This document shows positions 1 to 16,433 of a DNA stretch of 16,433 nt, one piece after another. Positions within the stretch are counted from its first letter, which is position 1, and each line of letters begins with the position of its first letter. This stretch comes from Abditibacteriaceae bacterium (GTDB lineage Bacteria > Armatimonadota > Abditibacteriia > Abditibacteriales > Abditibacteriaceae): the NCBI GenBank assembly GCA_031372065.1, contig JANMKN010000142.1, positions 1-16,433 on the forward strand. Direction: 5' to 3'. Position numbers and translations under genes: made by a program. Below the pieces are notes generated by a model. It made no database searches, was not told the DNA's origin, and was given only the letters and a program-made list of their open reading frames with translations.

Positions 1-142
1 GCTCCCTAATTGGGCGTCCCCCTAAAAAACCGCCAACAAAACCGTCGCCCCCCAAAAACCAACGCGGCGCGATTTTTAAATAAAACCCGCGCCCCGCTTT
101 TCACGCTTCGTTTACTCCTGCTTCGTTTATGCCAACGAAGAG

Positions 143-180
143 GTGTCTATGATAGGCGATTATTCGCCTATTATAGACAC
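143..180. other. 17-bp inverted repeat (hairpin/operator-like), contains TATAAT on minus strand
   Basis: gtgtctatgataggcga (143-159) - ttat - tcgcctattatagacac (164-180), one mismatch; lies downstream of cdaR. Confidence 0.6.
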
Positions 181-311
181 ATCAGGACACCATCACCTCA
201 GGGCACAATCGCCTCAGCCGCGCTTGGCTATGGTGAGCTATGTGCGACAAAATCCTTCGAGCTTTGCATCCGGTTCCGCCATTGCACCCTTTTCGTTATA
301 AATCTCATGGA

Positions 312-1391
312 TCACAGACTCTTGGGCGTAAAGGGCGCTGGTAAAGCCGCAGTAGCAGTCGGTTGTGGCGTAGGTTGCAGGGTCGGCGTTTCTTGCTGCG
401 GCACGATTTGCACCGTCGCGGTAACATCGCTTTTTTCGGCTAACGAGATGCCTGCGGGCAAATCCAGTTTTACGGCGCGTTGCAAAGGCACTTTCTCGTC
501 GGCAATGGCAAGGTGCGCGGTAATTGCTGTGAGTTTTTTCAAAGCCGCCCGCGTGCCACGCACGGCAACTGTAGATTGGGACAATTCTTGCTTTTCAACT
601 TTAAAGCCATTGGCTGGAGCGCCCTCTAATTTGAGCGAAAGCGGCACTTGTTTTTGCCCGTTTTTCTCGCGCAGCATTGCGGAAACGGCTACAGCTTCGG
701 GCGAAATGCGCACATCTTCTAAAACGCGACCCGCTTTATCTACAGCTTCGAGCGACGCGGCTTTAATGGAAAGTTCACCGGCCAATTGATCGGGTGTTTT
801 GATGCCTGCCCGAACGTGAGCCACACGCCCAATGGAATCCGCGGGGCCATAAACGCGGGCTTGACGCGGCACCATCACGACGTTTTCGATCATGTAATTT
901 TGCGCGGCATCGCCCAGAAATTGTGGCTCGATTTTAAATTCCGCACTGGCGGCAGGCGCAAATTCCAAGGTGATAATGTCCGGCTTGGGCGTGACATCTT
1001 CTTTTATATCTTCAAAATCTTCCAGCGTCGAAACGATTTTCACTGGCACGGCCTGCTTACCCGCTTTGACCAGCGAAAAATCCAGAGTCGCTTTCATCTG
1101 CGATTCCGGCAGCATCGGCGCTTCCTCGGCGGGCGCCAAAGGGTTGGGCGGAATCACGCCTTTGATTTCGCGCAATCGCAGGCGCGGCGCTTTGATTTGC
1201 ACCTTGACGAAAGTCGGAATTTCCTTGGAACTCATTAACATCAAGTTCGCAGGCGGCAGTGGCGCCACCAACTTGACGCGAAAGGTCGCATCTTCCCACG
1301 GATTCACCTCGCCGCGAACGTGTCCCCACAAAGCGATGGCGATGACTAACGATGTCAGTTTCAAATTCCAGTTGTTGAGTAAGCGAGACAT
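312..1391 (-). CDS. cdaR: YbbR-domain protein, CdaR-like regulator of diadenylate cyclase
   Basis: N-terminal NNWNLKLTSLVIAIALWGHV TM segment typical of YbbR/CdaR, repeated beta-rich units (P..V.V.GP, V.VRG), directly downstream of cdaA. ATG at 1391 preferred over GTG at 1499, whose extension is only translated repeat. Confidence 0.8.
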   Translation of the reverse strand: MSRLLNNWNLKLTSLVIAIALWGHVRGEVNPWEDATFRVKLVAPLPPANLMLMSSKEIPTFVKVQIKAPRLRLREIKGVIPPNPLAPAEEAPMLPESQMKATLDFSLVKAGKQAVPVKIVSTLEDFEDIKEDVTPKPDIITLEFAPAASAEFKIEPQFLGDAAQNYMIENVVMVPRQARVYGPADSIGRVAHVRAGIKTPDQLAGELSIKAASLEAVDKAGRVLEDVRISPEAVAVSAMLREKNGQKQVPLSLKLEGAPANGFKVEKQELSQSTVAVRGTRAALKKLTAITAHLAIADEKVPLQRAVKLDLPAGISLAEKSDVTATVQIVPQQETPTLQPTPQPTATAALPAPFTPKSL

Positions 1392-1392
1392 T

Positions 1393-1462
1393 TCGGTGGT
1401 CGGTGGTCGGTGGTCGGTGGTCGGTGGTCGGTGGTCGGTGGTCGGTGGTCGGTGGTCGGTGG
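1393..1462. repeat. Perfect tandem heptamer repeat (TCGGTGG)x10, followed by a degenerate complementary heptamer arm (about 1471-1500)
   Basis: 10 exact copies counted at 1393-1462; ctgatca-ccgaaca-ctgctca-ctgacca follows. Confidence 0.95.
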
Positions 1463-1502
1463 CGGCATTGCTGATCACCGAACACTGCTCACTGACCACT
1501 GT

Positions 1503-2441
1503 TTAATGCTTTTTCCACGCGGCTTTTAAGGTTCCAATGGCCGTATCGGGAATGCGACGGGCGACGTGTCCGGCGGCGCGCACGCCACCGGCAACGCCGC
1601 GCGCAAACGGACGCAAACGCACCGAACCGCCCGCGCTGTCCAGCAGCGACAATAGTTCTTCGGTCAGCAAGCGCGGTTGCAAAATCGAGTTCATGCTGCC
1701 TTCGTGCGCGAGGCTGATATTGCCAGTTTCTTCGCTGACGACAATGATAATGGCATCGGTTGTTTCGCTAAGGCCTAAAGCCGCGCGGTGCCGCGTGCCC
1801 ACGGTGCGAGGCAAGGCATTATTTTGTGTCAACGGCAAAATGCAACCAGCGGCCACGAGCATCGTGCCGCGAATGACCACGCCACCATCGTGCAAAGCAG
1901 TGCCGGTTTTAAAAATTGTCAGCAATAGTTCGGCAGACAATTTGGCGTTGAGTGAAGTGCCTGTCGCCGCCACATCGTCGAGGCCGGTTTCACGTTCGAG
2001 CACCATTAAAGCGCCAATGCGATTAGCCGAGAGATTTTCAACGGCGCGGGTGATTTCGGCCACGCCGCGCGCGATTTCGACGGTGGAACTTTCCTGACCG
2101 CGCAAACCGAGAAACTCCAAACGCCCGCGCCCCAATTGGTCAAGCGCGGCGCGCAATTCGGGCTGGAATAAAACCACGACGACAACCGCCGAGGCAAAAA
2201 TGGCCTGTCGTATCATCCAATCCAGCGTGTCCATTCCCAGCCATTGCGCCGCCTTCATAATGACCAGCAAAATCGCCAGCCCTTTTAAAAGCTGCATGGC
2301 GCGCGTGCCCTGCGCGAGTTGCAGCAGATAATAAATGACCGTCGCCACCAAGAGGATGTCGAGGATGGCAACGGCATCTATCTGACGCAGTAGTTCATGC
2401 AGATGCCGAGCGATTTCGCGTTGGGATGATTGCGGAAGCAT
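1503..2441 (-). CDS. cdaA: Membrane-bound diadenylate cyclase CdaA/DacA
   Basis: N-terminal TM helices, LFQPELR(A)L, NRIGAL, LHDGG (DGA-equivalent) and GTRHRAALG, VSEETG motifs of the DAC/DisA_N domain. Confidence 0.95.
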   Translation of the reverse strand: MLPQSSQREIARHLHELLRQIDAVAILDILLVATVIYYLLQLAQGTRAMQLLKGLAILLVIMKAAQWLGMDTLDWMIRQAIFASAVVVVVLFQPELRAALDQLGRGRLEFLGLRGQESSTVEIARGVAEITRAVENLSANRIGALMVLERETGLDDVAATGTSLNAKLSAELLLTIFKTGTALHDGGVVIRGTMLVAAGCILPLTQNNALPRTVGTRHRAALGLSETTDAIIIVVSEETGNISLAHEGSMNSILQPRLLTEELLSLLDSAGGSVRLRPFARGVAGGVRAAGHVARRIPDTAIGTLKAAWKKH

Positions 2442-2448
2442 TTCTTTA

Positions 2449-2490
2449 AGTGAAAAGTGAAAAGCAGCCCGTTACTCTTCACTTTTCACT
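2449..2490. repeat. Heptamer-based inverted repeat between alr and cdaA
   Basis: agtgaaaagtgaa (2449-2461) pairs perfectly with ttcacttttcact (2478-2490); overlaps the alr stop. Confidence 0.7.
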
Positions 2491-3642
2491 GACGTATTTC
2501 CTCGGCACGCGCGTATTGATGCTGGTCAAAATTTCATACGGCGAGGTATCCAGCAAGTCAGCCAGTTCGCCACAGGTGATGCATTCGTTGCCTTGCGCGC
2601 CAAGGAGAACAACTTCATCGTCATTATAAGCCGAATCGCCGCCGATATTGACCATCGTTTGATCCATTGAAACGCGTCCAATAACAGGATAACGCTTGCC
2701 GTGAATTAAAACTTGACCTTTATTTGACAAACCGCGCCGATAGCCATCGCCGTAGCCTACAGGAATGGTCACCACACGCGTTTGCTCAGGCGCGACAAAA
2801 CTGCCATCGTAACCAACAGGCGCGCCTTGCGGCACCACTTTAAAATACACAACACGCGTTTTAAGCGATAAAACGGGCCGCAGCGCCACTGTTTTGCGCG
2901 TCTCGGCATCGGGATAGACACCATAAAGCATGATTCCGGGCCGCACCATGTCGAATATCGTGTCGGGATGCTGCAAAATCGCACCGGAGTTGGCGATGTG
3001 TCGCTTAGGCATGGGCAAACCGTGACGCGGAAAATACGCCAAGGCTTCCTCAAATCTTTGCAGTTGCAATTTTGTGAAACTTTCGTCCGCCGCGTGCGAG
3101 GCCGCAAAATGCGAAAACACGCCTTCGATATCGCAATGACGACACTTTTGCGCCGCATCAAAAAGTTGGTCGGCATTATAATGATGCACGCCGATGCGTT
3201 CCATACCGGTATCAATTTTCAAATGCACTTTGGCGCGCTTGTTCAACTGCGCCGCTGTAGATTCAATCTGTTCCAGTTTAAAAACCGAAGAGGCGGTTAT
3301 CATCAAATTCCAGTTAAGAAAGTGTTCTATTTGGTTGCCGATGATGCCGCCCAGCACCAAAACCGGCGCTTCGATTCCCGCGCGCCGCAAAGCGATGCCT
3401 TCTTCGAGAAACGCCACACCGAGGCCGTAGGCGCCCAATTCAATGAATTTCTGCGCCACAGAAATGAGGCCATGACCATAAGCGTTGGCTTTGACGGTCG
3501 CTAATATTTTGGCCTCGCCCGCTAACTGGCGCACGCACTCGAAGTTGTGCTTGAGCGCGCCGAAATCCACTTCGGCAATTGTGGGGCGCAGAGTAAATTC
3601 TTCGTCAGCGATGACAAATTGCATTCCGCTCTTAGTATTCAT
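2479..3642 (-). CDS. alr: Alanine racemase
   Basis: PLP lysine motif VKANAYGHG, HLKIDTGMERIG, HIANSG, MVRPGIMLYG, GYGDGY, GRVSMDQ; true start could be slightly downstream. Confidence 0.97.
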   Translation of the reverse strand: MNTKSGMQFVIADEEFTLRPTIAEVDFGALKHNFECVRQLAGEAKILATVKANAYGHGLISVAQKFIELGAYGLGVAFLEEGIALRRAGIEAPVLVLGGIIGNQIEHFLNWNLMITASSVFKLEQIESTAAQLNKRAKVHLKIDTGMERIGVHHYNADQLFDAAQKCRHCDIEGVFSHFAASHAADESFTKLQLQRFEEALAYFPRHGLPMPKRHIANSGAILQHPDTIFDMVRPGIMLYGVYPDAETRKTVALRPVLSLKTRVVYFKVVPQGAPVGYDGSFVAPEQTRVVTIPVGYGDGYRRGLSNKGQVLIHGKRYPVIGRVSMDQTMVNIGGDSAYNDDEVVLLGAQGNECITCGELADLLDTSPYEILTSINTRVPRKYVSEK

Positions 3643-3785
3643 TGTTGGTTATCATCATGGCGTTCAAGGAAGGCACTTTTTGATGATGACATTTACTGAT
3701 TAAGAAAAAAAGCCTGCGCGAGAAATTTTCGCACAGACTTTTTGAAAAATGCAAGAAGAAACACACAGCTTGCGACAGTATGGAA

Positions 3786-4769
3786 TTATTTTTTCTCGAA
3801 TTGCAGCGCCGCTGAATTCATGCAGTAACGCAAACCGGTGGGTTGTGGGCCATCGTCGAAAACATGACCTAAGTGTCCGCCACAGCGCGGACATTCGACT
3901 TCGGTGCGCGTCATACCATCCGAATTGTCCACTTTTTCCACCACACTGGTTTTGGTCAGCGGCGCATAAAAACTGGGCCAACCAGTGCCCGATTCAAATT
4001 TTGTTTTTGAGGGAAATAATTCTTGACCGCAACCGGCACAGCGATAAATCCCGCTTTCGTGATTGGTGAGCAATGCGCCCGTGCCTGCCGCTTCGGTGCC
4101 TTCGTGACGCAAGACGTTATACGCCATCGGCGACAGTAATTTTTTCCATTCGGCATCGGTTTTGACGACTTTGCCGTTTTTATTGGCAGGCAAAACGGCT
4201 GGGCGCGGCGCAGTTTCGTTGACTAAATCGGCGATGAGTTCCGTCATTTTCTTGTCGCCGCCTTGCAACTCGCCAACCCACTGATAGCGAATCTTGCCTT
4301 GCTTATCAATCAGGTAAACCGTCGGCCAGTATTGCTGATTCCAACGCTGCCAGTTTTTGTTCTCGCCATCAATCAAAACCGGATACGCGATATTGTTTTT
4401 CTTGATGAACGCCGCCACGTTTTTCGGGTCGCGTTCTTGTGCCAATTCGGGGGTGTGCACGCCAATGAGTTCGACGCCTTGCCGATTGAAACGCTGATAC
4501 CAACTGGCATAGGCGGGCAAATTGGCCTGACAATTGGAACAGGCGAATGTCCAAAATTCGACAATAGTGACTTTGCCTTTGCGCGATTCCAGCGTGATAG
4601 GTTTGTTGCCTTGGGTGTTGAGCCACGAGGTGCCGACCAACTCCGGCGCCGTCTTATCCATTTTTATCGGATTGGCCGAGGCTTCTGGTTTATGCCGCCA
4701 AAACGCGCCGCCCAAAAGTAGCGCGCCCAACGCGCCCGCTGTTGTCAATGTTTTCAAAGTGTTTTTCAT
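3786..4769 (-). CDS. msrB: Exported fusion: TlpA/DipZ-like thioredoxin domain + methionine-R-sulfoxide reductase MsrB
   Basis: Signal-peptide-like N-terminus; EFWTFACSNC, GVHTPE, YWPTVYLIDKQG (redoxin); C-terminal SelR domain with CAGC/CPRC Zn motifs, KFESGTGWPSF, GHLGHVFDDGP, RYCMNS. Confidence 0.92.
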   Translation of the reverse strand: MKNTLKTLTTAGALGALLLGGAFWRHKPEASANPIKMDKTAPELVGTSWLNTQGNKPITLESRKGKVTIVEFWTFACSNCQANLPAYASWYQRFNRQGVELIGVHTPELAQERDPKNVAAFIKKNNIAYPVLIDGENKNWQRWNQQYWPTVYLIDKQGKIRYQWVGELQGGDKKMTELIADLVNETAPRPAVLPANKNGKVVKTDAEWKKLLSPMAYNVLRHEGTEAAGTGALLTNHESGIYRCAGCGQELFPSKTKFESGTGWPSFYAPLTKTSVVEKVDNSDGMTRTEVECPRCGGHLGHVFDDGPQPTGLRYCMNSAALQFEKK

Positions 4770-4931
4770 GATTTTGTCTCCGTCTCATTTTCGATGGATA
4801 GCAGCGCTTTTTCAGGCGACTCATAATCCATCAACCATTCAAACACCTTGGAGGCCGAGTTTGTTCCTGCTCCCAAGCAAATTGCCTATTGCAGCGCTTT
4901 ATATAGCCGCCCCATAGGAATCCGACGCTTC

Positions 4932-7595
4932 TTAAAACGGCAATTGTGTTTTGAGCAGAAGCGCCAATGCGGGGCCGACGATTTTGAGAATGCCCTGAAA
5001 AGCTGTGCCGATTTTCTCGTAGGACTCGAAGCCTTTGGCGGCACCTTCCAGCATGGCAAGCGCGCCGCCCGCTTTTTCCTTCGATTCTTCCGCATCTGGC
5101 TCGCTGACGGCTTCTTCCAATTGTTTCACGTTTCCTGCGGCGGCGTCGCAGACATATTTGTTTGCGCCCGCCGCGCGTGCCTGCTCAATCAAAGCGCGTA
5201 GCTTTTCGATTTCCGCTTTCAACTCTGCCGGATTGTCGGCGAGTTTCTGAATGGAAACTTGGTTGTTGTTGCCGATAACGTTGCCGTCACCGTTAATTGT
5301 GATGCCGCCCGTTGTAACCGGGCCGCTGGCGTCGCCGCCGATGTGAATGCCGTCGCTCATTTTATCTCCTTGAATTAAATCCCCTGCAACATAAATTCCG
5401 GCTTGTTGTTGTTCGCGCTCTTTGCGGGCTTCGCTGCGGACGGAGCCAAGTGCGTCGCTCACCAGCACAGGAATGATTTCGCCGGGTTTGGAGCCTTCAG
5501 CAGGAAGAATGTCGAATTTTCCTTCCCACTCCAAATTCCGCAGATGGCTGTAGCGCAGTAGCGGCGCGTTGGGATGCCCCGGCACCGGAATGAATTCTTC
5601 AACTGGCAAGTCTTTAAACTGGCCGTGAATGTCGTCGAAGGTGAGGCGCACTTTGTCGAGTGCCTCGCGCTGCTTTGCGGCAGGGCCGCTGACGTTGATT
5701 TCGACTTCCTTCTTTTCCCCGTCGGCGCGCACGAGGGCGCGGCAGCCGTTGATTTCCAGCACGCAGCCGTGGCGCCACGGGCCGGGAGTTTGGCTTTGCT
5801 CCTGATGGCGCCGCACGATGAAGCGCGGCAACAGGCCGGACGGCAGCACTTCGTAGCGATACAGAAAGCGAATCGTGCCCGTCTCCGGCCAAGCGAGAGG
5901 CGGCTCTTTTTCGTCCAGCAGGCGCGGCACCAACATGGTGCGCGGGCTGTGGTCGGGCGCGTCGTAGAGCAATTCAAACTGCCGCATCATGTCTTCGATG
6001 AACTGTGGCGAACGGTCGCGGTAATCGGCGGCGCCCAGCGTGTCGGACAATTGGCGGCGTGTCATCAAACCATTACGTTGGCGCAGGGCTTCGTCGTCCA
6101 ACACTGCGTAGACGCCTTTGGTGACCCATTCTGGGTTAAGAATGCCTTGGTCGCTCATAGCCACGCCTTCCTTGTCGCAGAAATAAAGGACGGTGCCCAG
6201 TTTGTGCCACAGGTCGAGCAGCAGTTCTTGATTCTTCTCGTCGCTTTCGCCGTGACGCGTGCATAACTCGCGGTAGGCGTGCAGCGGCAGCGTTTCCGCC
6301 GTCATGCGCTCCAATTCGTCTTTGATTTTCAGCCACGAAACCGGCATCTCGCGGCGCACTTCGCTCATGGCGCCGATGCGCGACAAGATGGCTTCTTTGA
6401 GCGTGTCCAAGCCCTCTCCAGTCCAACAACTGGCGCGGATGAACTGCAAATCATGGCCGTATTTGCGCTTGAGCAGATTTTCGTCGGGGCCGTCGCCGTG
6501 CTGGTCACACTTGTTGACGACGACTAAAACCGGAGCGTCGCCGCCGAAAGAACGAGCCATTTGCAGCCAGTATTCGACGTTATTTTGTCCATCATTGGCC
6601 CGTGCATCCACTACGACAATATAAACGGCGCGCTGCGTGAGAAAGAAGGTGTGTGTGGCGTGGTAAACCTCCTGACCGCCGAAGTCCCACAGGTTGAGAC
6701 GCAATTCGCCCTCATTTTCGCCTTGCGGCCACCACTTTTCGCGCACAATGCCGCGCGTTTTGTCGAAATGGCGCTCTACCGGTCCCGCTTGGAGCGCAGC
6801 TATAAGCGAGCTTTTGCCCACCTCAGCCTCACCTACAAACAGCACTTTAGCTTCATTCAAGGTGCGAACACCACCTGTCCGCCGTTGAGCAAAAAAATAG
6901 CGCAAAATCGCGCGTGGGTCGGCAGCGACTTCAAAAATCTGGACTTTGCTAATCCTCGGCCCCAAGATTTCCGGCGGGATGCCGAGCGAGTCGTTGCTAT
7001 GGAGATAAAGCTCTCTCAGGCGAGCGGCTTCGGCCAACGCCAGCAAACTCTCCGGCAGCGTGCTGAGTTTGTTGTTTCTGGCGTCAAGTTTCCTCAACTG
7101 CGCGAGTTGTCCGATGCTTTCTGGCAGCGTAGTGAGTAAGTTAGAAAAAATAATTAGCTCGCGTAACTGTCCCAATTTTCCCAACGATTCCGGCAACGCA
7201 TTGAGCTGATTGTGAAAGATGGAAATTTGCTCTAATTGACCCATTTGGTCTATACAGTCTGGAAGTTCGCTGATTCGGTTATTATATGCAACAAGGATTC
7301 TTAATCGGGACAATTCGCAGATCGAATCTGGCAAGGCGCTGATGTGGTTGTCAGAAATATCCAACTCTTGCAATTCTTGCAAATTGCTCAGTGAACTTGA
7401 TAATTCGCCCAGTCCGTTGTGAGATAGGTTTAGCTTCTTAATATGACTCAATTGCCAGAGACTTTTCGGAATCTCAGGCAAATCTAAATAGGAAAGATCA
7501 AGTTCTTCGGAGTTTACGCCGCGAACTGTCTCTATACGGCGTTCAGCCTCTGCCAAACGCATTTCGTAACGATTTTTATTGCTTTGGAAAGGCAT
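4932..7595 (-). CDS. Roco-family protein: LRR - Roc GTPase - COR - G/N-rich motif - C-terminal helical domain
   Basis: About 7 LRRs (LxxLxxLxLxxNxLxxLP), P-loop GEAEVGKSS, WDFGGQEVYHATHTFF, NKCD, COR motifs (SWLKIK..L, LHKLG-like WHKLG, ILNPEWVT.GVY, YEVLPSGLLPRFIVR). Confidence 0.92.
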   Translation of the reverse strand: MPFQSNKNRYEMRLAEAERRIETVRGVNSEELDLSYLDLPEIPKSLWQLSHIKKLNLSHNGLGELSSSLSNLQELQELDISDNHISALPDSICELSRLRILVAYNNRISELPDCIDQMGQLEQISIFHNQLNALPESLGKLGQLRELIIFSNLLTTLPESIGQLAQLRKLDARNNKLSTLPESLLALAEAARLRELYLHSNDSLGIPPEILGPRISKVQIFEVAADPRAILRYFFAQRRTGGVRTLNEAKVLFVGEAEVGKSSLIAALQAGPVERHFDKTRGIVREKWWPQGENEGELRLNLWDFGGQEVYHATHTFFLTQRAVYIVVVDARANDGQNNVEYWLQMARSFGGDAPVLVVVNKCDQHGDGPDENLLKRKYGHDLQFIRASCWTGEGLDTLKEAILSRIGAMSEVRREMPVSWLKIKDELERMTAETLPLHAYRELCTRHGESDEKNQELLLDLWHKLGTVLYFCDKEGVAMSDQGILNPEWVTKGVYAVLDDEALRQRNGLMTRRQLSDTLGAADYRDRSPQFIEDMMRQFELLYDAPDHSPRTMLVPRLLDEKEPPLAWPETGTIRFLYRYEVLPSGLLPRFIVRRHQEQSQTPGPWRHGCVLEINGCRALVRADGEKKEVEINVSGPAAKQREALDKVRLTFDDIHGQFKDLPVEEFIPVPGHPNAPLLRYSHLRNLEWEGKFDILPAEGSKPGEIIPVLVSDALGSVRSEARKEREQQQAGIYVAGDLIQGDKMSDGIHIGGDASGPVTTGGITINGDGNVIGNNNQVSIQKLADNPAELKAEIEKLRALIEQARAAGANKYVCDAAAGNVKQLEEAVSEPDAEESKEKAGGALAMLEGAAKGFESYEKIGTAFQGILKIVGPALALLLKTQLPF

Positions 7596-7640
7596 ATCAA
7601 CAAGTATAAATCAGAACACCTTGCCCAAAAGGTTCTGACG

Positions 7641-7896
7641 TGCGTTCTCGCAGTCATTTTCTGCGCCGTCGCACCTTTTTTCTGAGTTGCCACAGTTATT
7701 TTCTGCGTTGTCGCAGCTTTTTACTGCGTTCTCGCAGTTATTTTCTGCGTCGGCGCAGCTTTTTACTGCGTTCTCGCAGTTATTTTCTCCAATGCCGCAG
7801 AAAAAAGGTGCGGCGGCGCAGTTATTTTCCGCGTGGTCGCAGATATTTTCTCCGACCTCGCAGTTATTTTCTGCGACGACGCACCTTTTTTCTGCG
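7641..7896. repeat. Tandem array of 12 x 21-bp degenerate hairpin repeats (consensus TGCG-N4-CGCAGTTATTTTC)
   Basis: Units start at 7641, 7662, 7683, 7704, 7725, 7746, 7767, 7788, 7809, 7830, 7851, 7872; CGCAG-N7-CTGCG can form a 5-bp stem in the consensus units. Confidence 0.92.
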
Positions 7897-7907
7897 AGCG
7901 AGCGGTT

Positions 7908-8372
7908 TTAGGCCGGGTTGGGCGGCGTATTGGCGCCGCCGGCATTCTGTTCAAAGCGCGCTTTCAATTCGCGTTGCTCGGTTTCCATGCCGTCGGCGTG
8001 CTGCACTTGACGGTATACCAAGAGCGCGGCGGTCATCACTTCGCTGCCGATTTGGGTGAGCGTGTCGTCCAACAATTCATGCAGACGGGCCACAGCGGTC
8101 AGGATGGGCATCAAGTCGAAAAACAACTCCAAATCGCGCTCCATCGTGGCGACATCGAAACTGCGGGGCAAAATGTCCTCGTTTTGCTTGGCGATTTCCA
8201 GCGCCTTTTGCACAAAAGCGCGGCTGCCATCGCCCAATTTGGGCAGGGCGCGGCGTTGATGAGTGGTCAAGTCAATCAAAAACGGCACTTTGTCTTTTAT
8301 CAGGGCGACGGCAGCTAAAGCGGCCTGCACATCGGCAGCCGTGACGGTGGCATCAATACGGTTTTGCAACAT
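7908..8372 (-). CDS. Hypothetical all-helical protein (154 aa)
   Basis: Strong RBS (AAGGAG-5nt-ATG); motifs PFLIDLT..RR.LPK.G and LPRSFD....RD resemble, from memory, a widespread uncharacterised family; function unknown. Confidence 0.8.
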   Translation of the reverse strand: MLQNRIDATVTAADVQAALAAVALIKDKVPFLIDLTTHQRRALPKLGDGSRAFVQKALEIAKQNEDILPRSFDVATMERDLELFFDLMPILTAVARLHELLDDTLTQIGSEVMTAALLVYRQVQHADGMETEQRELKARFEQNAGGANTPPNPA

Positions 8373-8840
8373 CTAAACTCCTTCTATGGCGCCAATTTAT
8401 GGCTCCGGGTCGGCGGGCGCGGGTTATACCGCTCCTATTCCGCATCCCGCAAATTCTACAGCACATTTAAAAACAGATGATTTTGGGGTAAATGTATTGA
8501 AACAAGCTCCTTTTACAGTAGATTTGAAAACGCCCATAGAGGCGGAATCAGCAACGTTAAAATAGGGCAAGGCCAGCAATTACGATAAAACGGCCTCTGG
8601 TTCAGGCTTCAAAAAACGTCCCGCGATGAATTAATTTTAACATCGCAGATGCATTTGTAAATATAACGCCTCTGCTTCAATTTGAGATTTGAATTGAGAT
8701 TCACTGTTTAGCAAAAGCAGGCGGCCTCCACTGGAATTTTTTCTGCGTTGCGACTACACTGCCCCGCTTAGTAGGCCCGTTGTTTTGGCCGTTTTTCAAC
8801 TTCATCAATCCATTCGATTTATCGAAACTCAGGAGACATT

Positions 8841-10298
8841 ATGCCAGAAGCAAATTGCGACATTGGTCTGATCGGTTTAGCCGTCATGGGTCAGAATCTC
8901 GTTCTCAACATGAACGATCACGGTTACAAAGTGGCCGTTTACAATCGCACCACATCCAAAGTGGACGATTTTCTCGCCGACGAAGCCAAAGGAACCGAAG
9001 TTGTCGGTTGCCACACCGAAGAAGAATTAGTCGCCGCTCTCAAAAGCCCGCGCCGCATCATGCTGATGGTCAAAGCGGGCGATACGGTGGACAAAGTCAT
9101 TGACCAAATCGCGCCGCTCATGGAAGCGGGCGACATTATCATTGACGGCGGCAACTCGCTGTTCACCGATTCCAATCGCCGCACCAAAGACTTGGCCGCC
9201 AAAGGCATTTTGTTCGTTGGCACCGGCGTTTCCGGCGGCGAAGAAGGGGCGCGAAACGGCCCTTCGATTATGCCGGGCGGCAATCCCGAAGCGTGGCCTC
9301 ACGTCAAGGAAATTTTCCAATCCATCGCTGCCAAAGTGGACGACGGCACGCCGTGTTGCGATTGGGTCGGCGAAGACGGCGCCGGTCACTACGTCAAAAT
9401 GGTGCATAACGGCATCGAATACGGCGATATGCAGCTTATCTGCGAAGCCTATCAACTGATGAAGGACGGCCTTGGCCTTAACGCCGACGAACTGCACCAA
9501 GTTTTTGCCGAATGGAATCAGGGCGAACTCGACAGTTACCTCATCGAAATCACGCGCGACATCTTTGCGAAAAAGGATGAAGACGGCGCGCCGATGGTGG
9601 ACAAAATCCTCGACACCGCCGGACAAAAAGGCACCGGCAAGTGGACGGGCATCAGTTCGCTCGAACTCGGCGTGCCTGTCACCTTGATTGGCGAAGCGGT
9701 TTATGCGCGCTGCGTTTCGGCGATGAAAGAAGAGCGCGTCGCGGCCTCCCAAGTTTTGAGCGGCCCAAAAGCGGAGATTTCCGGCGACAAAAAAGCGATC
9801 ATCGAAGAAGTGCGCAAGGCGCTTTACTGCTCGAAGATGATTTCCTACGCGCAAGGCTATATGCTGCTGCGCGAAGCCGCCAAAGAAAACAAGTGGAATC
9901 TAAATTTCGGTGGTATCGCTTTGATGTGGCGCGGCGGCTGCATTATTCGCAGCGCCTTTTTGGGCAAGATTAAAGATGCCTTTGACAAGAATCCCGACCT
10001 CAATAACCTGCTGATGGACGACTTTTTCAGCGGCGCATTGAACGAATATCAGGATGCGTGGCGCCGCGCCGTCATCAAAGCCATCGAATGCGGCGTGCCG
10101 ACCCCGGCGTTTTCGACGGCGTTGGCATTTTACGACGGCTATCGCACCGGGCGCCTGCCTGCCAACTTGCTGCAAGCGCAGCGCGATTATTTTGGCGCGC
10201 ACACTTACGAGCGCGTGGACAAACCGCGCGGCGAATTTTTTCACACCGACTGGACAGGCCACGGCGGGCGCGTCTCTTCCAGCACTTACAACGTTTAG
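8841..10298 (+). CDS. gnd: 6-phosphogluconate dehydrogenase, decarboxylating (NADP-dependent)
   Basis: IGLIGLAVMGQNL, IIDGGNS, GVSGGEEGA, GHYVKMVHNGIEYGDMQ, QAQRDYFGAHTY; RBS AGGAG upstream. Confidence 0.98.
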   Translation: MPEANCDIGLIGLAVMGQNLVLNMNDHGYKVAVYNRTTSKVDDFLADEAKGTEVVGCHTEEELVAALKSPRRIMLMVKAGDTVDKVIDQIAPLMEAGDIIIDGGNSLFTDSNRRTKDLAAKGILFVGTGVSGGEEGARNGPSIMPGGNPEAWPHVKEIFQSIAAKVDDGTPCCDWVGEDGAGHYVKMVHNGIEYGDMQLICEAYQLMKDGLGLNADELHQVFAEWNQGELDSYLIEITRDIFAKKDEDGAPMVDKILDTAGQKGTGKWTGISSLELGVPVTLIGEAVYARCVSAMKEERVAASQVLSGPKAEISGDKKAIIEEVRKALYCSKMISYAQGYMLLREAAKENKWNLNFGGIALMWRGGCIIRSAFLGKIKDAFDKNPDLNNLLMDDFFSGALNEYQDAWRRAVIKAIECGVPTPAFSTALAFYDGYRTGRLPANLLQAQRDYFGAHTYERVDKPRGEFFHTDWTGHGGRVSSSTYNV

Positions 10299-10307
10299 TT
10301 CTTTGTC

Positions 10308-10364
10308 AATCGTCAATGGTCATGGGTTTGAAAGCAACACGAAAACCTGCGACCATTGACGATT
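10308..10364. terminator. Stem-loop after gnd (terminator or REP-like, heptamer-based)
   Basis: aatcgtcaatggtc (10308-10321) / gaccattgacgatt (10351-10364), perfect 14-bp arms followed by T-rich sequence. Confidence 0.6.
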
Positions 10365-10391
10365 TTGATTTCAAAATGCGGCATTTAGCTC

Positions 10392-10420
10392 TTGCAATTG
10401 CTGCCCGTGATTTGTAAAAT
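10392..10420 (+). promoter_or_regulatory. Sigma70-type promoter for tRNA-Ala
   Basis: TTGCAA-17 nt-TAAAAT, about 30 nt upstream of the tRNA. Confidence 0.65.
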
Positions 10421-10451
10421 CGGTAGGGCTTACGAAGCAGAAGCAGAAAAA

Positions 10452-10524
10452 GGGGCCATAGCTCAGCTGGGAGAGCGTCGGTTTTGCAATCCGAAGGTCA
10501 GCGGTTCGATCCCGCTTGGCTCCA
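10452..10524 (+). tRNA. tRNA-Ala (anticodon TGC), CCA not encoded
   Basis: Acceptor GGGGCCA/TGGCTCC with G3:U70, D-arm AGCTCAGCTGGGAGAGC, loop TT-TGC-AA, T-loop GGTTCGATCC. Confidence 0.95.
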
Positions 10525-10537
10525 CTTTAAGAATCGC

Positions 10538-10586
10538 AAATAAAACGCCGCGCGATTGAAAATCAATCGCGCGGCGTTTTATTTTT
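10538..10586. terminator. Bidirectional intrinsic terminator
   Basis: Perfect 22-bp inverted repeat aaataaaacgccgcgcgattga / tcaatcgcgcggcgttttattt with A/T tails. Confidence 0.85.
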
Positions 10587-10674
10587 CATACAGGAATTCA
10601 TACTACGCCTGAACTAAAGATAAAAACTACGGATAAATCCGCCCAAAGGACAACCAATAAACACAGATAAAAAC

Positions 10675-10709
10675 AAAAAAGCCAAAGCTAAAAATAGCTT
10701 TGGCTTTTT
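10675..10709 (-). terminator. Intrinsic terminator after tRNA-Leu
   Basis: aaaaaagccaaagcta-aaaa-tagctttggcttttt. Confidence 0.8.
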
Positions 10710-10713
10710 CTTA

Positions 10714-10796
10714 TGTCGCAGAGAGGACTCGAACCTCCACGAGATTGCTCTCACTAGCCCCTCAAGCTAGCGCGTCTGCCATTCCGCCACTGCGAC
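10714..10796 (-). tRNA. tRNA-Leu (anticodon GAG), CCA not encoded
   Basis: Minus strand GTCGCAGTGGCGGAATGGCAGACGCGCTAGCTT-GAG-GGGCTAG, long variable arm, GGTTCGAGTCC, CTGCGACA; secG-tRNA-Leu(GAG) synteny as in E. coli secG-leuU. Confidence 0.95.
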
Positions 10797-10817
10797 AAAA
10801 AAGGTATTTACGTCGGT

Positions 10818-11150
10818 TTACGAACGAAGGCCCAACACGGTGCTCCAGATACGATTGCCAAACGTCATGATCACAACGTAAATCAAAAGCAGGACGGCGA
10901 AACGCGCGATGTCCGGCTCTGGCGAGGCGGCAAAGATGGCGGAAAACAGCAAGCCAATGCAAGCCCACCGTGTCAGCGGCTTCAGGATGCGTTCGGCGCC
11001 GACCAGCATATCCACACTGCCTGCCTGACGGCCACTGGCACCGCCAATGCCCATCACGCCACTTTGTTCGACCTTGTCAGTCTGCATCGCCATCAACGCG
11101 ATGACCAAAACCGCGTTAGCGACAAATAAAATTAAAGAGAAAGTTGCCAC
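10818..11150 (-). CDS. secG: Preprotein translocase subunit SecG-like membrane protein
   Basis: TM ending in ..MAMQ, Gly-rich loop (GVMGIGGASG), GAERILKPLT then second TM; GTG start at 11150 with GAGG RBS; followed by tRNA-Leu(GAG). Confidence 0.75.
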   Translation of the reverse strand: MATFSLILFVANAVLVIALMAMQTDKVEQSGVMGIGGASGRQAGSVDMLVGAERILKPLTRWACIGLLFSAIFAASPEPDIARFAVLLLIYVVIMTFGNRIWSTVLGLRS

Positions 11151-11240
11151 AAAAACCTCAAAACACAACAAAAAATCCGACACATCCTCATTTAATTGAA
11201 AAACAAAAGTTTCCTCAACCAAACAGCGACGCGAAATGAA

Positions 11241-11269
11241 ATTATAGACGAGACGCCCCCATGGGTCAA
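11241..11269 (-). promoter_or_regulatory. Sigma70-type promoter for secG-tRNA-Leu
   Basis: Minus strand TTGACC-17 nt-TATAAT. Confidence 0.75.
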
Positions 11270-11317
11270 GCCAAAACTTGAAAATTTAGCAAAGTGTGAC
11301 GCGAGGGCGGAGGTGTT

Positions 11318-11326
11318 TGCTAAAAT
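11318..11326 (+). promoter_or_regulatory. Possible extended -10 promoter for larBC
   Basis: TGC-TAAAAT about 40 nt upstream of the ATG at 11366. Confidence 0.4.
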
Positions 11327-11365
11327 CAAAGGCGTTGTCATTTGTTGACCCTTCATGCAGCATTT

Positions 11366-12127
11366 ATGAATCAAGAAAATTTACGCGCCTTGCTCGAAAA
11401 CGTGCAAAAGGGCGCGCTCTCCAGCGAAGCGGCGCTGGCCCAACTGCGCGATTTGCCGTTCGAAGACCTTGATTTCGCCAAAGTAGATCATCATCGCGGC
11501 CTCCGTCAGGGCTTTCCCGAAGTGATTTTCAGCGAGGGCAAAACGCCCGCTCAAGTGACGGCGATTGCTCAAGCCATGCACGCGCGCGGCGCGACGGTTT
11601 TGGCCTCGCGCGCCTCAAAAATTACTTTTGAAGCCGTGCAAACAGCCATTCCCGCCGCGACTTATCACGAAACCGCGCGCCTGATTCACATCAAAGGCGA
11701 AGTGGCGCCCCATTTGGCGGGTAAGGTCGGCGTTTTGTGCGCCGGAACCAGCGATTTGCCAGTGGCCGAAGAAGCCGCCGGAACGCTCGAAGCGATGGGC
11801 GCTGCCGTGGAACGCATTTATGATGTCGGCGTGGCCGGTTTGCATCGCTTGATGCATCATCGGAGTGTCTTTTCGGCGTGCGACGTGCTGATTGTCTGCG
11901 CCGGCATGGAAGGCGCCTTGCCCAGCGTCGTCGGCGGCTTGGTGGATATTCCGGTGATCGCCGTGCCGACCAGCGTCGGTTATGGCGCCAGCTTCGGCGG
12001 CTTGGCGGCCCTCTTGGGAATGCTCAATTCCTGCGCCAACGGCATCGCCGTAGTAAACATTGACAACGGCTTTGGCGCCGCCGCCTTCGCTGCCTCAATT
12101 TTGCGAAAGAGTAAATCGTCTGATTAG
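11366..12127 (+). CDS. larB: Nickel-pincer cofactor biosynthesis protein LarB (PurE-like carboxylase/hydrolase)
   Basis: DHHRGLRQGFPEVIF.EGKT, AGTSDLPVAEEA, DVGVAGLHRL, AGMEGALPSVVGGL, PTSVGYG, VVNIDNGFGA; ATG at 11366 is the likely start. Confidence 0.95.
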   Translation: MNQENLRALLENVQKGALSSEAALAQLRDLPFEDLDFAKVDHHRGLRQGFPEVIFSEGKTPAQVTAIAQAMHARGATVLASRASKITFEAVQTAIPAATYHETARLIHIKGEVAPHLAGKVGVLCAGTSDLPVAEEAAGTLEAMGAAVERIYDVGVAGLHRLMHHRSVFSACDVLIVCAGMEGALPSVVGGLVDIPVIAVPTSVGYGASFGGLAALLGMLNSCANGIAVVNIDNGFGAAAFAASILRKSKSSD

Positions 12128-12210
12128 GTTTTTTGGATGTTACGTCTTGGGTGTTTACTCAAGCCGTTTATAATTAAGCCCAAAGACCCACAACCTAAAA
12201 CTCAAAACCC
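12125..12210. repeat. Degenerate heptamer repeats in two roughly complementary arms between larB and larC
   Basis: taggttt-tttggat-gttacgt-cttgggt ... taagccc-aaagacc-cacaacc-taaaact-caaaacc. Confidence 0.5.
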
Positions 12211-13602
12211 ATGATCCTTTATTTTGATTGCTTTTCTGGCGTGTCCGGCGACATGGCTTTGGGCGCGCTGCTCGATTGTGGTGTGCCACTGGAAGCGTTG
12301 CGCGAGGGTTTGTCGTCGCTGCCTGTCGAAGGCTGGCATATCGCCGCCGAGCCGACGCTGATTTCAGGAATTCATGCTTTGGATGTGACAATTTCCGAAC
12401 ATGGTCTCACTGATGAGGAAGAACTCGCGCAGCATCAGGGCCACGAGCCTGATGCTCACGAGCATCATCACCATCACGGCCACGATAAACACCACAACTA
12501 CGGCCATCACGAGCATAAGCATGAGCATGAACACGACCATGAACACCATCACGAACATGACCATGAACACACACATGAACATCATCATGGCCGTTCGATG
12601 GCCGAGATTCGCGAAATTATCGAACGAAGCGCGTTGAGTGAGAAAGTGAAATCCACCAGTCTGGCGATCTTTTTAAAAATCGCGGAAGCGGAAGCGGCGA
12701 TGCATCACAGCACCGTGGACGAGGTGCATTTTCACGAAATCGGCGGCATAGATTCGCTGCTCGATATTTGCGGCGTGGCGTGGTGTCTTGACTATCTCGG
12801 CGTGGACGAAGTGCATTGCTCGGCGCTGCCACATTCGAGCGGCTTTGTAGATTGCGCGCATGGCCGGATGCCTATTCCCGCACCGGCCACCTTGCGCATT
12901 TTGCAGGGCGTGCCGATGGTTCCCACCGACATCAAAGGCGAACTCGTCACCCCAACCGGCGCGGCCATTGTCGCGACGCTCGCGCAAAGTTTCGGTGCGC
13001 CGCCGCCCTTAACAATCAGCGCCACCGGACACGGCGCGGGTAAAAAGCGTTGGCCCGACCGCCCTAATATGCTGCGTGCCACGCTCGGCACACGCGCGGA
13101 ACACACTTCTTTAGACGGTTTGGAGTGGCGCACGCTGAACGTGGTGGAATGCAACGTCGATGATATGAACCCAGAGTTGTGGGATCACGTCATGGCGCGA
13201 TTATTTGCCGTCGGTGCGCTGGATGTTTGGCTGCAAAACGCGCAAATGAAGAAAAACCGGCCCGCGACGATTCTACACGCGCTGTGCGATGATGCTACGC
13301 AAAACCAAGTCATCGCCACCCTTTTGCGCGAAACCACTACGCTTGGCGTGCGCGTGCAAAAAGTCCAGCGCGCCGCGATGACGCGCGAAATATCCCAAGT
13401 GGAAACGCCCTTTGGCCTTGTTCGCGTGAAAAGCGCTTATTGGCAACAAGGCAACGTGCAACGCGCCGTGCCAGAATACGACGATGTCACTCGTTTGGCA
13501 ACCGCAAACGGCGTCGCGGCTCGCGAAATTTATGAAGCGGCACAACGAGAGGCACAACAGGCCGCGCCGCGCCATTCGCACAACGACGAGAGCAACAGTT
13601 AA
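12211..13602 (+). CDS. larC: Nickel insertase LarC (full-length, with His-rich insert)
   Basis: YFDCFSGVSGDM.LGAL, VHFHEIG, CAHG.MPIPAPAT, ELVTPTGAAI, ECNVDDM.PE, MKKNRP, ETTTLGVR, PEYDD. Confidence 0.95.
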   Translation: MILYFDCFSGVSGDMALGALLDCGVPLEALREGLSSLPVEGWHIAAEPTLISGIHALDVTISEHGLTDEEELAQHQGHEPDAHEHHHHHGHDKHHNYGHHEHKHEHEHDHEHHHEHDHEHTHEHHHGRSMAEIREIIERSALSEKVKSTSLAIFLKIAEAEAAMHHSTVDEVHFHEIGGIDSLLDICGVAWCLDYLGVDEVHCSALPHSSGFVDCAHGRMPIPAPATLRILQGVPMVPTDIKGELVTPTGAAIVATLAQSFGAPPPLTISATGHGAGKKRWPDRPNMLRATLGTRAEHTSLDGLEWRTLNVVECNVDDMNPELWDHVMARLFAVGALDVWLQNAQMKKNRPATILHALCDDATQNQVIATLLRETTTLGVRVQKVQRAAMTREISQVETPFGLVRVKSAYWQQGNVQRAVPEYDDVTRLATANGVAAREIYEAAQREAQQAAPRHSHNDESNS

Positions 13603-13637
13603 AATAGATTGCGCAAGCAAGAGCAGGAGATAGATTT

Positions 13638-15137
13638 ATGCATTTTCAATGGAATTGGCGCCTGATTTTGGTGACCTTGTTTTTACCCATTTTGGGTTTC
13701 ATCGGCACCGCAAGCGCCCAACGGTCGTTGCCCACGGACACCGTCAACATCGCCGCCGCTTCGCGCGGCGGGCGCATTGTCAATCAGCCGACGGTGCTGG
13801 ACGACCAAAAAGAATACGGCTCGCAAAATTTAATTGACGAGAAAATCTACAGCGCCGATGGCAAAGGTTCTTTTGGTTGGGTTAGTAACCACTATGATCC
13901 GATCAATATGGAAGAAGTCGTTGTTGGCTTCGCTGGCAATGAATCAAAGCGCATTGGGCGCATCGTATTAAATCCCGCCACTTATGTCGCGCGCGAGCGT
14001 TGGGCGAAAGATATTTCGTTGGAGGTTTCCGATAATATCAATGGCCCATGGCAGAACATCGCCGAAATCACCCTCAAACAAGTTCCCGAATGGCAGGAAT
14101 TCAAATTTTTGCCCGTAGATGCGCGTTTTGTCAAATTGCGTTTTCGCACCAATTATGGCTCTGACCGCGCCATTGCGCTGGGCGAAGTGCAAATATTCGA
14201 ATCCATTAACACCGAAAAAGGCATCGGCGGCACGATAGGCCGTTTGGAATCTGCTATTGCTGAACTGGACAAATGGCGCAAGAATCAACTGGAACTGGGA
14301 GTCGGCGCTGCGGTGCAACGCGTCAGCACTCCCAATGCGCCGTCCTCCAACGTCAATATCGCGGCAAAATCGAACGGCGGCAAAATCGTGGCGGTTTCCT
14401 CGGTTTTTGAAAGCGAACGAGGCAAAGGCCCCGACCTCACTTACAACGCCGATAAATTGATTGACGAGCGCGTGTGGCAAAAGGAAGACAAACCCAGCAA
14501 CGGCTGGTCAAGCGAAGGCTTTGTGCCCGGCCAACAGTGGGTCATTCTCGGCTTCAAAGATGATAGAGCGCAGCCTATCGGCAAAATTGTGTTCAGCCTG
14601 ATGTGCTATCAGCCGCGTGATCGCTGGGCACGGCGCGTCGAAGTTCAGGTCAGCAATAAAGCCTACAAAAATGAGGACGATTTAAAATCGTTTCGCACCA
14701 TTCAAACCATTAATTTAGCTTCCGTCACCAGCAATCAGATTTTCGATTTGCCGCCCACCGAAGCCCAATATGTGCGCTTGGTTTTCACCGCCAATGGCCC
14801 CGGCGGTGTAGACATTCCCGGCATTGACCCCGATGTCAATTCTGACCGCGCTGTCGCTTTGGGCGAAGTGGAAATTTATCCGCCAAAAGCGACCAATAGC
14901 GATTTGGATAGCATCATCACGCGCTTTAAAAACATTTCGTCCGATCTCAAGCGCCTGAGCCGCACCAATCCAGAGTTGGCCGCCTTAGAGATTCCTGAAA
15001 TAAACGCGGCCACCGAAAATGCCTTGTTAGACACGCCGGATAAAGATAATCCTCCCAAGGCGCCGCAAGTGACGCCGGCTCAATCGGCAGCGAACACCCG
15101 CATCAAAACCGCCCGAACTCCGATTCGACGACCATAA
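13638..15137 (+). CDS. Secreted protein with two discoidin / F5/8 type C-like (galactose-binding-like) domains
   Basis: Signal peptide ending ASA; duplicated domain NIAA.S.GG.IV ... ARFVKL/AQYVRL ... SDRA.ALGEV.I; RBS AGGAG. Confidence 0.7.
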   Translation: MHFQWNWRLILVTLFLPILGFIGTASAQRSLPTDTVNIAAASRGGRIVNQPTVLDDQKEYGSQNLIDEKIYSADGKGSFGWVSNHYDPINMEEVVVGFAGNESKRIGRIVLNPATYVARERWAKDISLEVSDNINGPWQNIAEITLKQVPEWQEFKFLPVDARFVKLRFRTNYGSDRAIALGEVQIFESINTEKGIGGTIGRLESAIAELDKWRKNQLELGVGAAVQRVSTPNAPSSNVNIAAKSNGGKIVAVSSVFESERGKGPDLTYNADKLIDERVWQKEDKPSNGWSSEGFVPGQQWVILGFKDDRAQPIGKIVFSLMCYQPRDRWARRVEVQVSNKAYKNEDDLKSFRTIQTINLASVTSNQIFDLPPTEAQYVRLVFTANGPGGVDIPGIDPDVNSDRAVALGEVEIYPPKATNSDLDSIITRFKNISSDLKRLSRTNPELAALEIPEINAATENALLDTPDKDNPPKAPQVTPAQSAANTRIKTARTPIRRP

Positions 15138-15144
15138 ACTAATT

Positions 15145-16290: not shown

Positions 16291-16293
16291 AAC

Positions 16294-16425
16294 TAATTAG
16301 TCGGACAGAATAGATTATGCCAAGGGAGAAGCATAAGCGACGGGCTTAACCGGCTCGGAGAAAATCCCGTCGCTTATGCTCTGGATTCTCAGGGATAGGC
16401 GAATTTAATTGTGTCCGACTAATTA
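16294..16425. mobile_element. MITE/REP-like 132-bp non-coding element with terminal and internal inverted repeats
   Basis: taattagtcggaca (16294-16307) / tgtccgactaatta (16412-16425); inner agcataagcgacggg (16330-16344) / cccgtcgcttatgct (16366-16380). Confidence 0.6.
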
Positions 16426-16433
16426 AGCACCCC

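Follow-up and report, generated by a model that had tools for sequence, protein, structure and literature searches.

The Roco gene examined here raises the question of whether a single open reading frame (ORF) can supply a bacterium with both a receptor and a separate partner protein. It lies in a 16,433-nucleotide stretch of DNA from Abditibacteriaceae bacterium (assembly GCA_031372065.1, contig JANMKN010000142.1, positions 1 to 16,433 of the forward strand), which was analysed at its full length and is referred to below as the window. The gene occupies 4932..7595 on the minus strand and encodes 887 amino acids (aa), with leucine-rich repeats (LRR) followed by the Roc, COR-A and COR-B domains, a motif rich in glycine, asparagine and isoleucine, and a helical module. 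An earlier note on this DNA had claimed that an AAGGAG Shine-Dalgarno (SD) sequence stands 5 nt before an in-frame ATG at 5360 with 142 aa remaining, and this is confirmed on the minus strand. Because of the rarity of the site, its conservation, the preference for GGA ahead of it, a control based on GTG and the occurrence of the module as stand-alone genes, this internal start is very likely to be real and under selection, with ribosomes probably initiating at Met746.

The probable internal start site

Within the 887-aa ORF (7595-4932) the minus strand reads, in frame, ...ATT CAA GGA GAT AAA ATG AGC. The internal AAGGAG (5366..5371, minus) is spelled by the rare codon pair CAA GGA and is separated by the 5-nt spacer ATAAA (5365-5361) from the ATG of Met746 (5358..5360, minus). 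Met746 lies 47 residues beyond the Pfam end of COR-B at residue 699, in agreement with the location just past the COR domain that had been given before. One motif repeat (GIYVAGDLIQGD) precedes Met746 and belongs to the full-length protein only (aa 733-745, 5361..5399, minus), with the ribosome binding site written into its last codons; the larger part of the G/N/I-rich stretch follows Met746. Initiation at this position would likely yield a free 142-aa product of 14.6 kDa (4932..5360, minus), for which stand-alone relatives of the same size are known.

The 3' end of the 16S rRNA of this genome (GGATCACCTCCTTT) is complementary to the internal SD site, and the duplex energy is -8.3 at this site versus +1.0 at ATG 7595 and +0.7 at ATG 7562; the comparison made in the earlier note, that the internal SD is better than anything upstream of ATG 7595, therefore holds. 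No SD was detected by duplex formation with the 16S 3' end at ATG 7595, the 5' start of the gene. A weak sigma-70-like match (9/12) at 7600-7572 on the minus strand overlaps ATG 7595 and ends 10 nt before ATG 7562, where a near-leaderless start is possible; four sigma-70-like sites were found against two expected by chance.

The internal site is rare in its own genome. The genome's 2,426 long ORFs contain 18,218 internal in-frame ATGs, and only six of these, Met746 included, have AAGGAG 4-9 nt upstream, two of the remaining five appearing to be genuine gene starts within ORFs that were called too long; the duplex energy of the site is matched or bettered by 94 of these ATGs. In the same genome, the Q-G of the peptide QGD is spelled CAAGGA in 4 of 174 cases, and the commonest spacing of AGGAG near the 5' ends of ORFs is 5 nt (86/439). 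A contig of run X1, which may be the source of this DNA, covers the whole stretch with zero differences; the sequencing runs listed were three DNA runs of one study, of which X1 alone covers the SD, and no strain variants were seen.

Conservation and codon choice at the module start

At the protein level, four homologues align across the entire tail, with Met in P0003, P0004 and P0005 and Val in P0006, a close homologue labelled Armatimonadota, in the same column as Met746, and the residues flanking this column differ among them. An orthologue from the same genus (L179, G266:C14) keeps AAGGAG, the 5-nt spacing and ATG with otherwise different codons. The tail of this orthologue is frameshifted after the motif, either as a real break or as an assembly error.

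A word-based search for homologues of the 142-aa product returned 249 candidates and none at E 0.001, so that a profile search was needed. Roco loci were gathered from genomes, metagenomes and the phylum of the window, the end of COR being mapped in 181 of 188, and further module-bearing loci from Armatimonadota, Anaerolineae and cyanobacteria were added through profile matches. The module was found in 39 Roco ORFs, for which start codons were scored in a fixed interval of 41 codons positioned by the helical domain and compared with 664 control intervals from the upstream parts of 54 fused ORFs; eleven duplicate loci were excluded from the module-locus set, from this fixed-interval test and from the blind glycine-codon test described below, and L114 was counted as a non-Roco fusion, though its Roco part is broken before the tail. 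The lack of a conserved SD and Met in homologues that the earlier note gave as counting against its start was not seen: the module opens with ATG in 35 and with GTG in the other 4 of the 39 Roco genes that carry it, compared with ATG in 210 of the 664 controls. SD matches of at least 4, 5 and 6 nt were present in 23, 16 and 10 of the 39, versus 50, 14 and 3 of the 664 controls. In a held-out set of 13 cyanobacterial Roco genes that were not picked by eye, ATG occurs in 13/13 versus 62/158 control intervals, and an SD of at least 5 nt in 4/13 versus 3/158. The SD and Met are kept in homologues from three phyla. SD and start are 4-5 nt apart in Armatimonadota and Chloroflexota and 11 nt apart in cyanobacteria, the latter in agreement with the longer optimal spacing for Synechocystis reported in the accessible part of PMC5834881.

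Three codon-level tests say that selection at the internal start acts on the DNA and not on the peptide. When the first Met was chosen blind to the upstream DNA, glycine codons 2-5 codons before it were GGA in 13 of 15 cases, compared with 2 of 133 in the motif after the Met. In 11 cyanobacterial genes that were chosen by peptide pattern and are 49-91% identical, the glycine before the Met is encoded by GGA in all 11, whereas the other conserved glycine columns vary in 10 of 11, the sole invariant one being GGC. The third test is provided by six Anaerolineales-type tails that open the motif with Val (peptide GGN/xR-V). The three with a helical domain have GTG after GGAGG or AGGA, whereas the three that stop at the motif have GTC or GTT and no SD. 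For instance, L077 and L124 have the peptide GGNVTHIHIGG in common, and it is precisely in their Val codon and SD codons that they differ.

The module of motif plus helical domain also exists as a stand-alone gene of 115-150 aa, located after Roco genes that end with the motif and before NLR genes that start with it. In Calothrix (L026) and Leptolyngbya (L079), the Roco gene stops directly after the motif, and a motif+helical gene (134 and 115 aa, respectively) with a matching N-terminal motif starts 37 and 34 nt downstream. At L197, a stand-alone module with TAAGGAG is followed by an NB-ARC protein that opens with a matching motif, and a matching motif was also found in the gene after L245. 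The genome of the window (G000) has a 120-aa stand-alone motif+helical gene of its own with GGAGG (G000:C288:470-1, minus; L189/L192). Its stop lies inside the next gene, which begins with the same motif and is cut by the end of the contig; this is likely an effector/NLR pair in the layout of L197.

Among 22 short-tailed Roco loci, the stand-alone module is the next gene in two and lies two genes further downstream, as a fusion with a DUF4926-like domain (a label taken from similar proteins), in six, a Bell-like gene is present in one and a frameshifted tail in one; no partner was found within the first 700 nt in the remaining 12, three of which (L044, L050, L103) have the module further on. 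The six downstream fusions have a Met at the module start. In these loci (L018, L025, L045, L056, L096, L105), the Roco motif is separated from the motif+helical module by a 111-aa gene, which overlaps the Roco stop, and by the DUF4926-like domain, as if a cassette had been inserted into a fused gene. At L146, a 133-aa gene (L146:6241-6639) with a hydrophobic N-terminus and a C-terminal motif begins 53 nt after a motif-ending Roco gene; its match to HetE-N is weak (E 3e-4, under the cut-off) and no match was obtained in sequence and fold searches of the PDB, and this locus appears to pair a Roco protein with a Bell-like effector gene of classical polarity.

Beyond Roco genes, a profile of 14 modules matched 1,080 representatives, and the best 149 besides the query comprise 44 short and 105 fused proteins. 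A Met lies 26-65 residues before the helical anchor in 78 of the 105 fused proteins, versus 35% expected. The fusion partners, of which 53 were scanned, include COR, LRR, pentapeptide repeats, AbiTii, CHAT, TCAD9, EAD11 and DUF4062. The C-terminal ~100 positions of the PADLOC candidate PDC-M14B match 10 of the 14 module family members, including the C288 copy (E 1.4e-8), whereas the window's own product (P0001/P0002) has no match to it at E 0.01, and no paper naming PDC-M14 was found in the literature search. A TPR protein (G000:C58:1604-6, minus) carries an ITGDGNVIGN-type motif in mid-protein, with no Met before the motif.

The two predicted products, their surroundings and their possible function

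The protein is a Roco protein by its Roc GTPase domain followed by COR, with PF08477, PF16095 and PF25497 in this order and above the Pfam cut-off. The leucine-rich repeats (aa 44-189, 7029..7466, minus; Pfam LRR_14/LRR_8/LRR_4) would likely serve as the sensor, and are followed by the Roc GTPase domain (aa 250-364, 6504..6848, minus; PF08477, E 3.7e-26), COR-A (aa 418-560, 5916..6344, minus; PF16095, E 2.4e-32) and COR-B (aa 574-699, 5499..5876, minus; PF25497, E 1.5e-22). The G/N/I/D-rich motif common to both products corresponds to aa 1-38 of the short form (5247..5360, minus), and the entire stretch of 51 residues in the full-length protein (aa 733-783) contains 12 G, 8 I, 5 N, 5 D, 4 V and 3 Q. 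By analogy with known signalling motifs it is predicted to be amyloid-like. An AlphaFold2 model of the short form from a 14-row alignment (mean pLDDT, the predicted local distance difference test, of 66) has low confidence for residues 1-35 (pLDDT <50) and contains a four-helix bundle of no named family at aa 44-138 (4947..5231, minus). Searches of the PDB by sequence and fold retrieved generic helical bundles only, with a best Foldseek E of 0.15 and a best VIA Z of 12.6 (TTYH3; root-mean-square deviation 2.8, 106 aligned), which is in the range usual for helical bundles, and a complex prediction with four copies of residues 1-45 gave no verdict (score 0.18). The last helix (aa 117-135, 4956..5012, minus) is the most hydrophobic 19-mer of the short form, with a moderate mean Kyte-Doolittle value of 1.59 and a family range of 0.78-2.14, and could possibly insert into membranes.

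Around the Roco gene, the region 7641-7896 between it and the upstream gene holds a degenerate tandem array with a period of 21/42 nt, ~12/6 copies and repeated short hairpins. The upstream 154-aa ORF (7908-8372, minus) has a strong SD and no Pfam or PADLOC match, and the downstream gene (3786-4769, minus) encodes an AhpC/TSA thioredoxin-like domain fused to SelR/MsrB. A 338-aa ORF at 15255-16271 on the plus strand may by its resemblance be an insertion sequence (IS) transposase. A second Roco gene of the genome (G000:C334:13513-17052, minus) ends in a different tail, and its own start is preceded by a strong SD.

The mechanism proposed for the gene builds on the site, its rarity, its conservation in both protein and codons, the split two-gene versions and the partner genes that share the motif alone, all of which are observed. 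The earlier note had described a gene that yields a long and a free 142-aa product which share a polymerisation motif; the internal start and the free product have gained strong comparative support from conservation, codon selection and the stand-alone genes, while polymerisation by the motif and the effector role are drawn by analogy and from gene context. One Roco gene would thereby give the full-length receptor in small amounts and the free 142-aa protein in larger ones, the short form presumably outnumbering the long one because ATG 7595 lacks an SD. Sensing by the leucine-rich repeats would then drive oligomerisation of Roc-COR, as is generally known for Roco proteins, and the clustered receptor motifs would seed a cross-beta polymer. 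Free copies would be recruited through their N-terminal motif, so that their four-helix bundles cluster, and the hydrophobic last helix would enter the membrane, leading to cell death and abortive infection. Confidence falls along this chain, from the start at Met746 to the excess of the short form, to seeding by the receptor, and finally to recruitment and membrane attack; the chain as a whole, with dual products, amyloid-like co-assembly and a membrane-damaging effector in phage infection, is judged to have about an even chance of being correct. More tentatively, and with somewhat less confidence, it is conceivable that bacteria in at least three phyla pack a receptor/effector amyloid pair into one gene, in which a selected internal start frees an effector of reverse polarity, with the motif ahead of the helical bundle, that is seeded by the receptor's motif, that the module moves between three states (fused with an internal start, stand-alone after Roco genes and stand-alone before NLR genes), and that this may extend to TIR-tailed Roco proteins.

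Several observations weigh against this mechanism or the internal start on which it depends. No SD match of even 4 nt was found in 16 of the 39 Roco loci with the module; these are mostly of one Microcoleus/Nostoc type, ending in K-A-E-x-x-M and located in A-rich unstructured RNA, and the unstructured starts are confounded with Asn/Gln-rich sequence, whose codons give the same property. The 39 loci are not independent. As 34 are cyanobacterial or cluster with cyanobacteria, they represent approximately 4-5 independent lineages on a quick tree, which groups them as the window, L171, the three Anaerolineales-type loci and a large cyanobacterial group, one sub-branch of which is distinct. In non-Roco fusions of the module, ATG is present in 14 of 15 but an SD of at least 5 nt in only 3 of 15, and the Met count in the fused profile matches is slightly biased to Met-bearing ones because the profile itself begins with Met. 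The hydrophobicity of the last helix is moderate and falls below 1.05 in 6 of the 14 family members. The window's product has no Pfam, NCBIfam or PADLOC family at the cut-off, and in a 31-sequence search it was weakly linked to other helical domains (best E 0.002 outside close kin). No defence-island context was found within the window, and the polarity of the module is opposite to that of all the amyloid-signalling cases compared from the accessible parts of the literature. Finally, the linkers of TIR-tailed Roco genes, intended as a negative control, show an SD and start in 16 of 67, so that the signal is not specific to the motif+helical module.

A TIR-like tail, called by pattern, is carried by ~67 of 179 distinct Roco loci. 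The 16 with an SD and start include six from one Nostoc-type lineage and two of the same protein, and several are likely chance occurrences of GAGGTG at the limit of spacing; internal starts may be a wider habit of Roco genes, or the SD rule may be lax for these linkers. At eight loci (L027, L029, L054, L111, L116, L118, and also L089 and L092), TAAGGA or AGGAGG stands 6-10 nt before a Met directly ahead of TIR, and a free TIR product from them is possible.

It could be argued that the site arose by chance, as the Q-G-D repeat happened to be spelled CAA GGA GAT before a Met, given that xQGDK is a frequent repeat in these motifs and that the site was picked after the fact. This reading is hardly credible and is already largely refuted by the excess of GGA just before the Met (13/15 vs 2/133 in motifs), by the scarcity of CAAGGA among QGD codons (4/174) and by the GTG-versus-GTC control. 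It is quite improbable, too, that the SD and ATG are a relic of repeated gene fusions in which the receptor stop was lost, the short protein being perhaps made and not needed. Split and fused forms do coexist with short gaps, the internal-start signal is weaker in non-Roco fusions and the same-genus orthologue has a frameshifted tail, but all 11 genes compared, down to 49% identity, retain GGA whereas their other glycine codons have drifted, and the SD of the fused genes was not simply inherited, because the split cyanobacterial L026 and L079 genes have no AAGGAG before their own start.

Other readings accept the start and assign a different role to the short form. As a brake, it would cap or titrate the motif or the helical domain of the receptor and stop spontaneous firing, in the way of McrB-S in McrBC. 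An excess of short over long form suits a buffer as well as an amplifier, and McrBS is described as modulating activity in the accessible part of PMC2993543; however, the receptors of split loci end at the motif and have no helical domain to inhibit, and the stand-alone module adjoins them (L026, L079) or NLRs (L197), a layout that fits an output rather than a brake and makes this reading improbable. Alternatively, the two forms may assemble by ordinary helical-bundle or short beta-solenoid contacts, as an adaptor or scaffold like SpaO-S or CcmM35, with neither amyloid nor membrane attack. The modelled bundle is a generic four-helix one, atlas feature look-alikes include TCAD2 and DUF4404 clusters (scores 0.90-0.91, leads only), and precedents are given in the accessible part of PMC13515050, yet it is the low-complexity motif and not the bundle that split partners have in common, and its composition rich in G, N, I, V and Q is as described for bacterial amyloid signalling sequence (BASS) motifs in the accessible text of Dyrka et al. 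(bioRxiv 10.1101/2020.01.06.895854); ordinary assembly is accordingly considered rather unlikely. The amyloid-type receptor and effector arrangement is the reading with which known systems are compared below.

Relation to known systems

Bacterial Roco proteins are related to human LRRK2, and no description of their output was found in the literature searched. The protein in the window has the leucine-rich repeats, Roc, COR-A and COR-B of other bacterial Roco proteins, and differs in its tail, a motif plus an unnamed helical bundle, from the mostly TIR tails of the present sample. Literature searches in the accessible texts found no paper joining Roco, an amyloid motif and an internal start, and the accessible parts of Kaur et al. 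(PMC7159879, PMC8195603) and of a 2026 review (PMC13506858) contain nothing on such an arrangement. If the mechanism is correct, a Roco protein gains a concrete and testable output, and Roco GTPases and a helical module of reverse polarity join amyloid-type immune signalling. A single ORF with two ribosome binding sites could fix the ratio of receptor to effector, unseen by gene callers, and cloning the C-terminal domain alone or recoding the gene for E. coli would drop one component unnoticed. If the same were true for TIR-tailed Roco proteins, annotation would be missing the two-component nature of many bacterial immune receptors that pass for 'all-in-one'.

In-frame internal starts as such are known from CcmM58/35, SpaO L/S and CheA L/S (accessible part of PMC13515050) and from McrB L/S, whose short form McrBS is without the first 161 aa and modulates activity (accessible part of PMC2993543). 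The Roco gene has an in-frame start with a ribosome binding site conserved in homologues, and would resemble them in being one gene for a long and an N-terminally truncated form, the short one being a separate subunit or modulator; McrB is in addition also a defence GTPase. The difference is that these systems, as far as the accessible texts go, are not described as a receptor with its own effector joined by a polymerising motif, nor as swappable with a two-gene pair.

A model for the recruitment and membrane-attack steps is provided by Bab/Agp, also designated BASS11, a tested case of abortive infection by amyloid signalling, where a large sensor acts on a death effector that is small and helical (Ibarlosa et al., bioRxiv 10.1101/2024.11.07.622273, accessible text). 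This system consists of two genes, and in Bab a hydrophobic helix lies at the N-terminus and the motif at the C-terminus. The main text of that paper does not mention Roco, internal, initiation, Shine or methionine. Among the matches listed, none linked the module by sequence or fold to a Bab, Bell or MLKL structure, and whereas Bell, HeLo and MLKL proteins carry an N-terminal hydrophobic helix on a four-helix bundle, the module has the motif at its N-terminus and a hydrophobic last helix.

A close parallel is to the BASS pairs, in which, according to the accessible text of Dyrka et al., a G/N/Q/V/I-rich motif is carried by a repeat-bearing NTPase receptor and by a small helical protein. The main text of that paper mentions neither Roco, methionine nor initiation. 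Likenesses include a shared short motif of this kind, to which the composition of aa 733-783 conforms, adjacent genes in the split relatives, and cyanobacteria among the hosts. There are also differences. The receptor is a Roco GTPase; receptor and putative effector share one ORF instead of the adjacent genes seen in the relatives L026, L079 and L197; and the BASS motif is described in the accessible text as C-terminal to Bell and N-terminal on NLR (NB-ARC/NACHT) proteins, whereas here it is C-terminal on Roco and N-terminal on the helical protein. By this comparison, one gene would do the job of a BASS receptor/effector gene pair, with the ratio of the two products set by two ribosome binding sites, and the Roco internal-start system would work like a BASS pair and yet not be a member of the BASS families.

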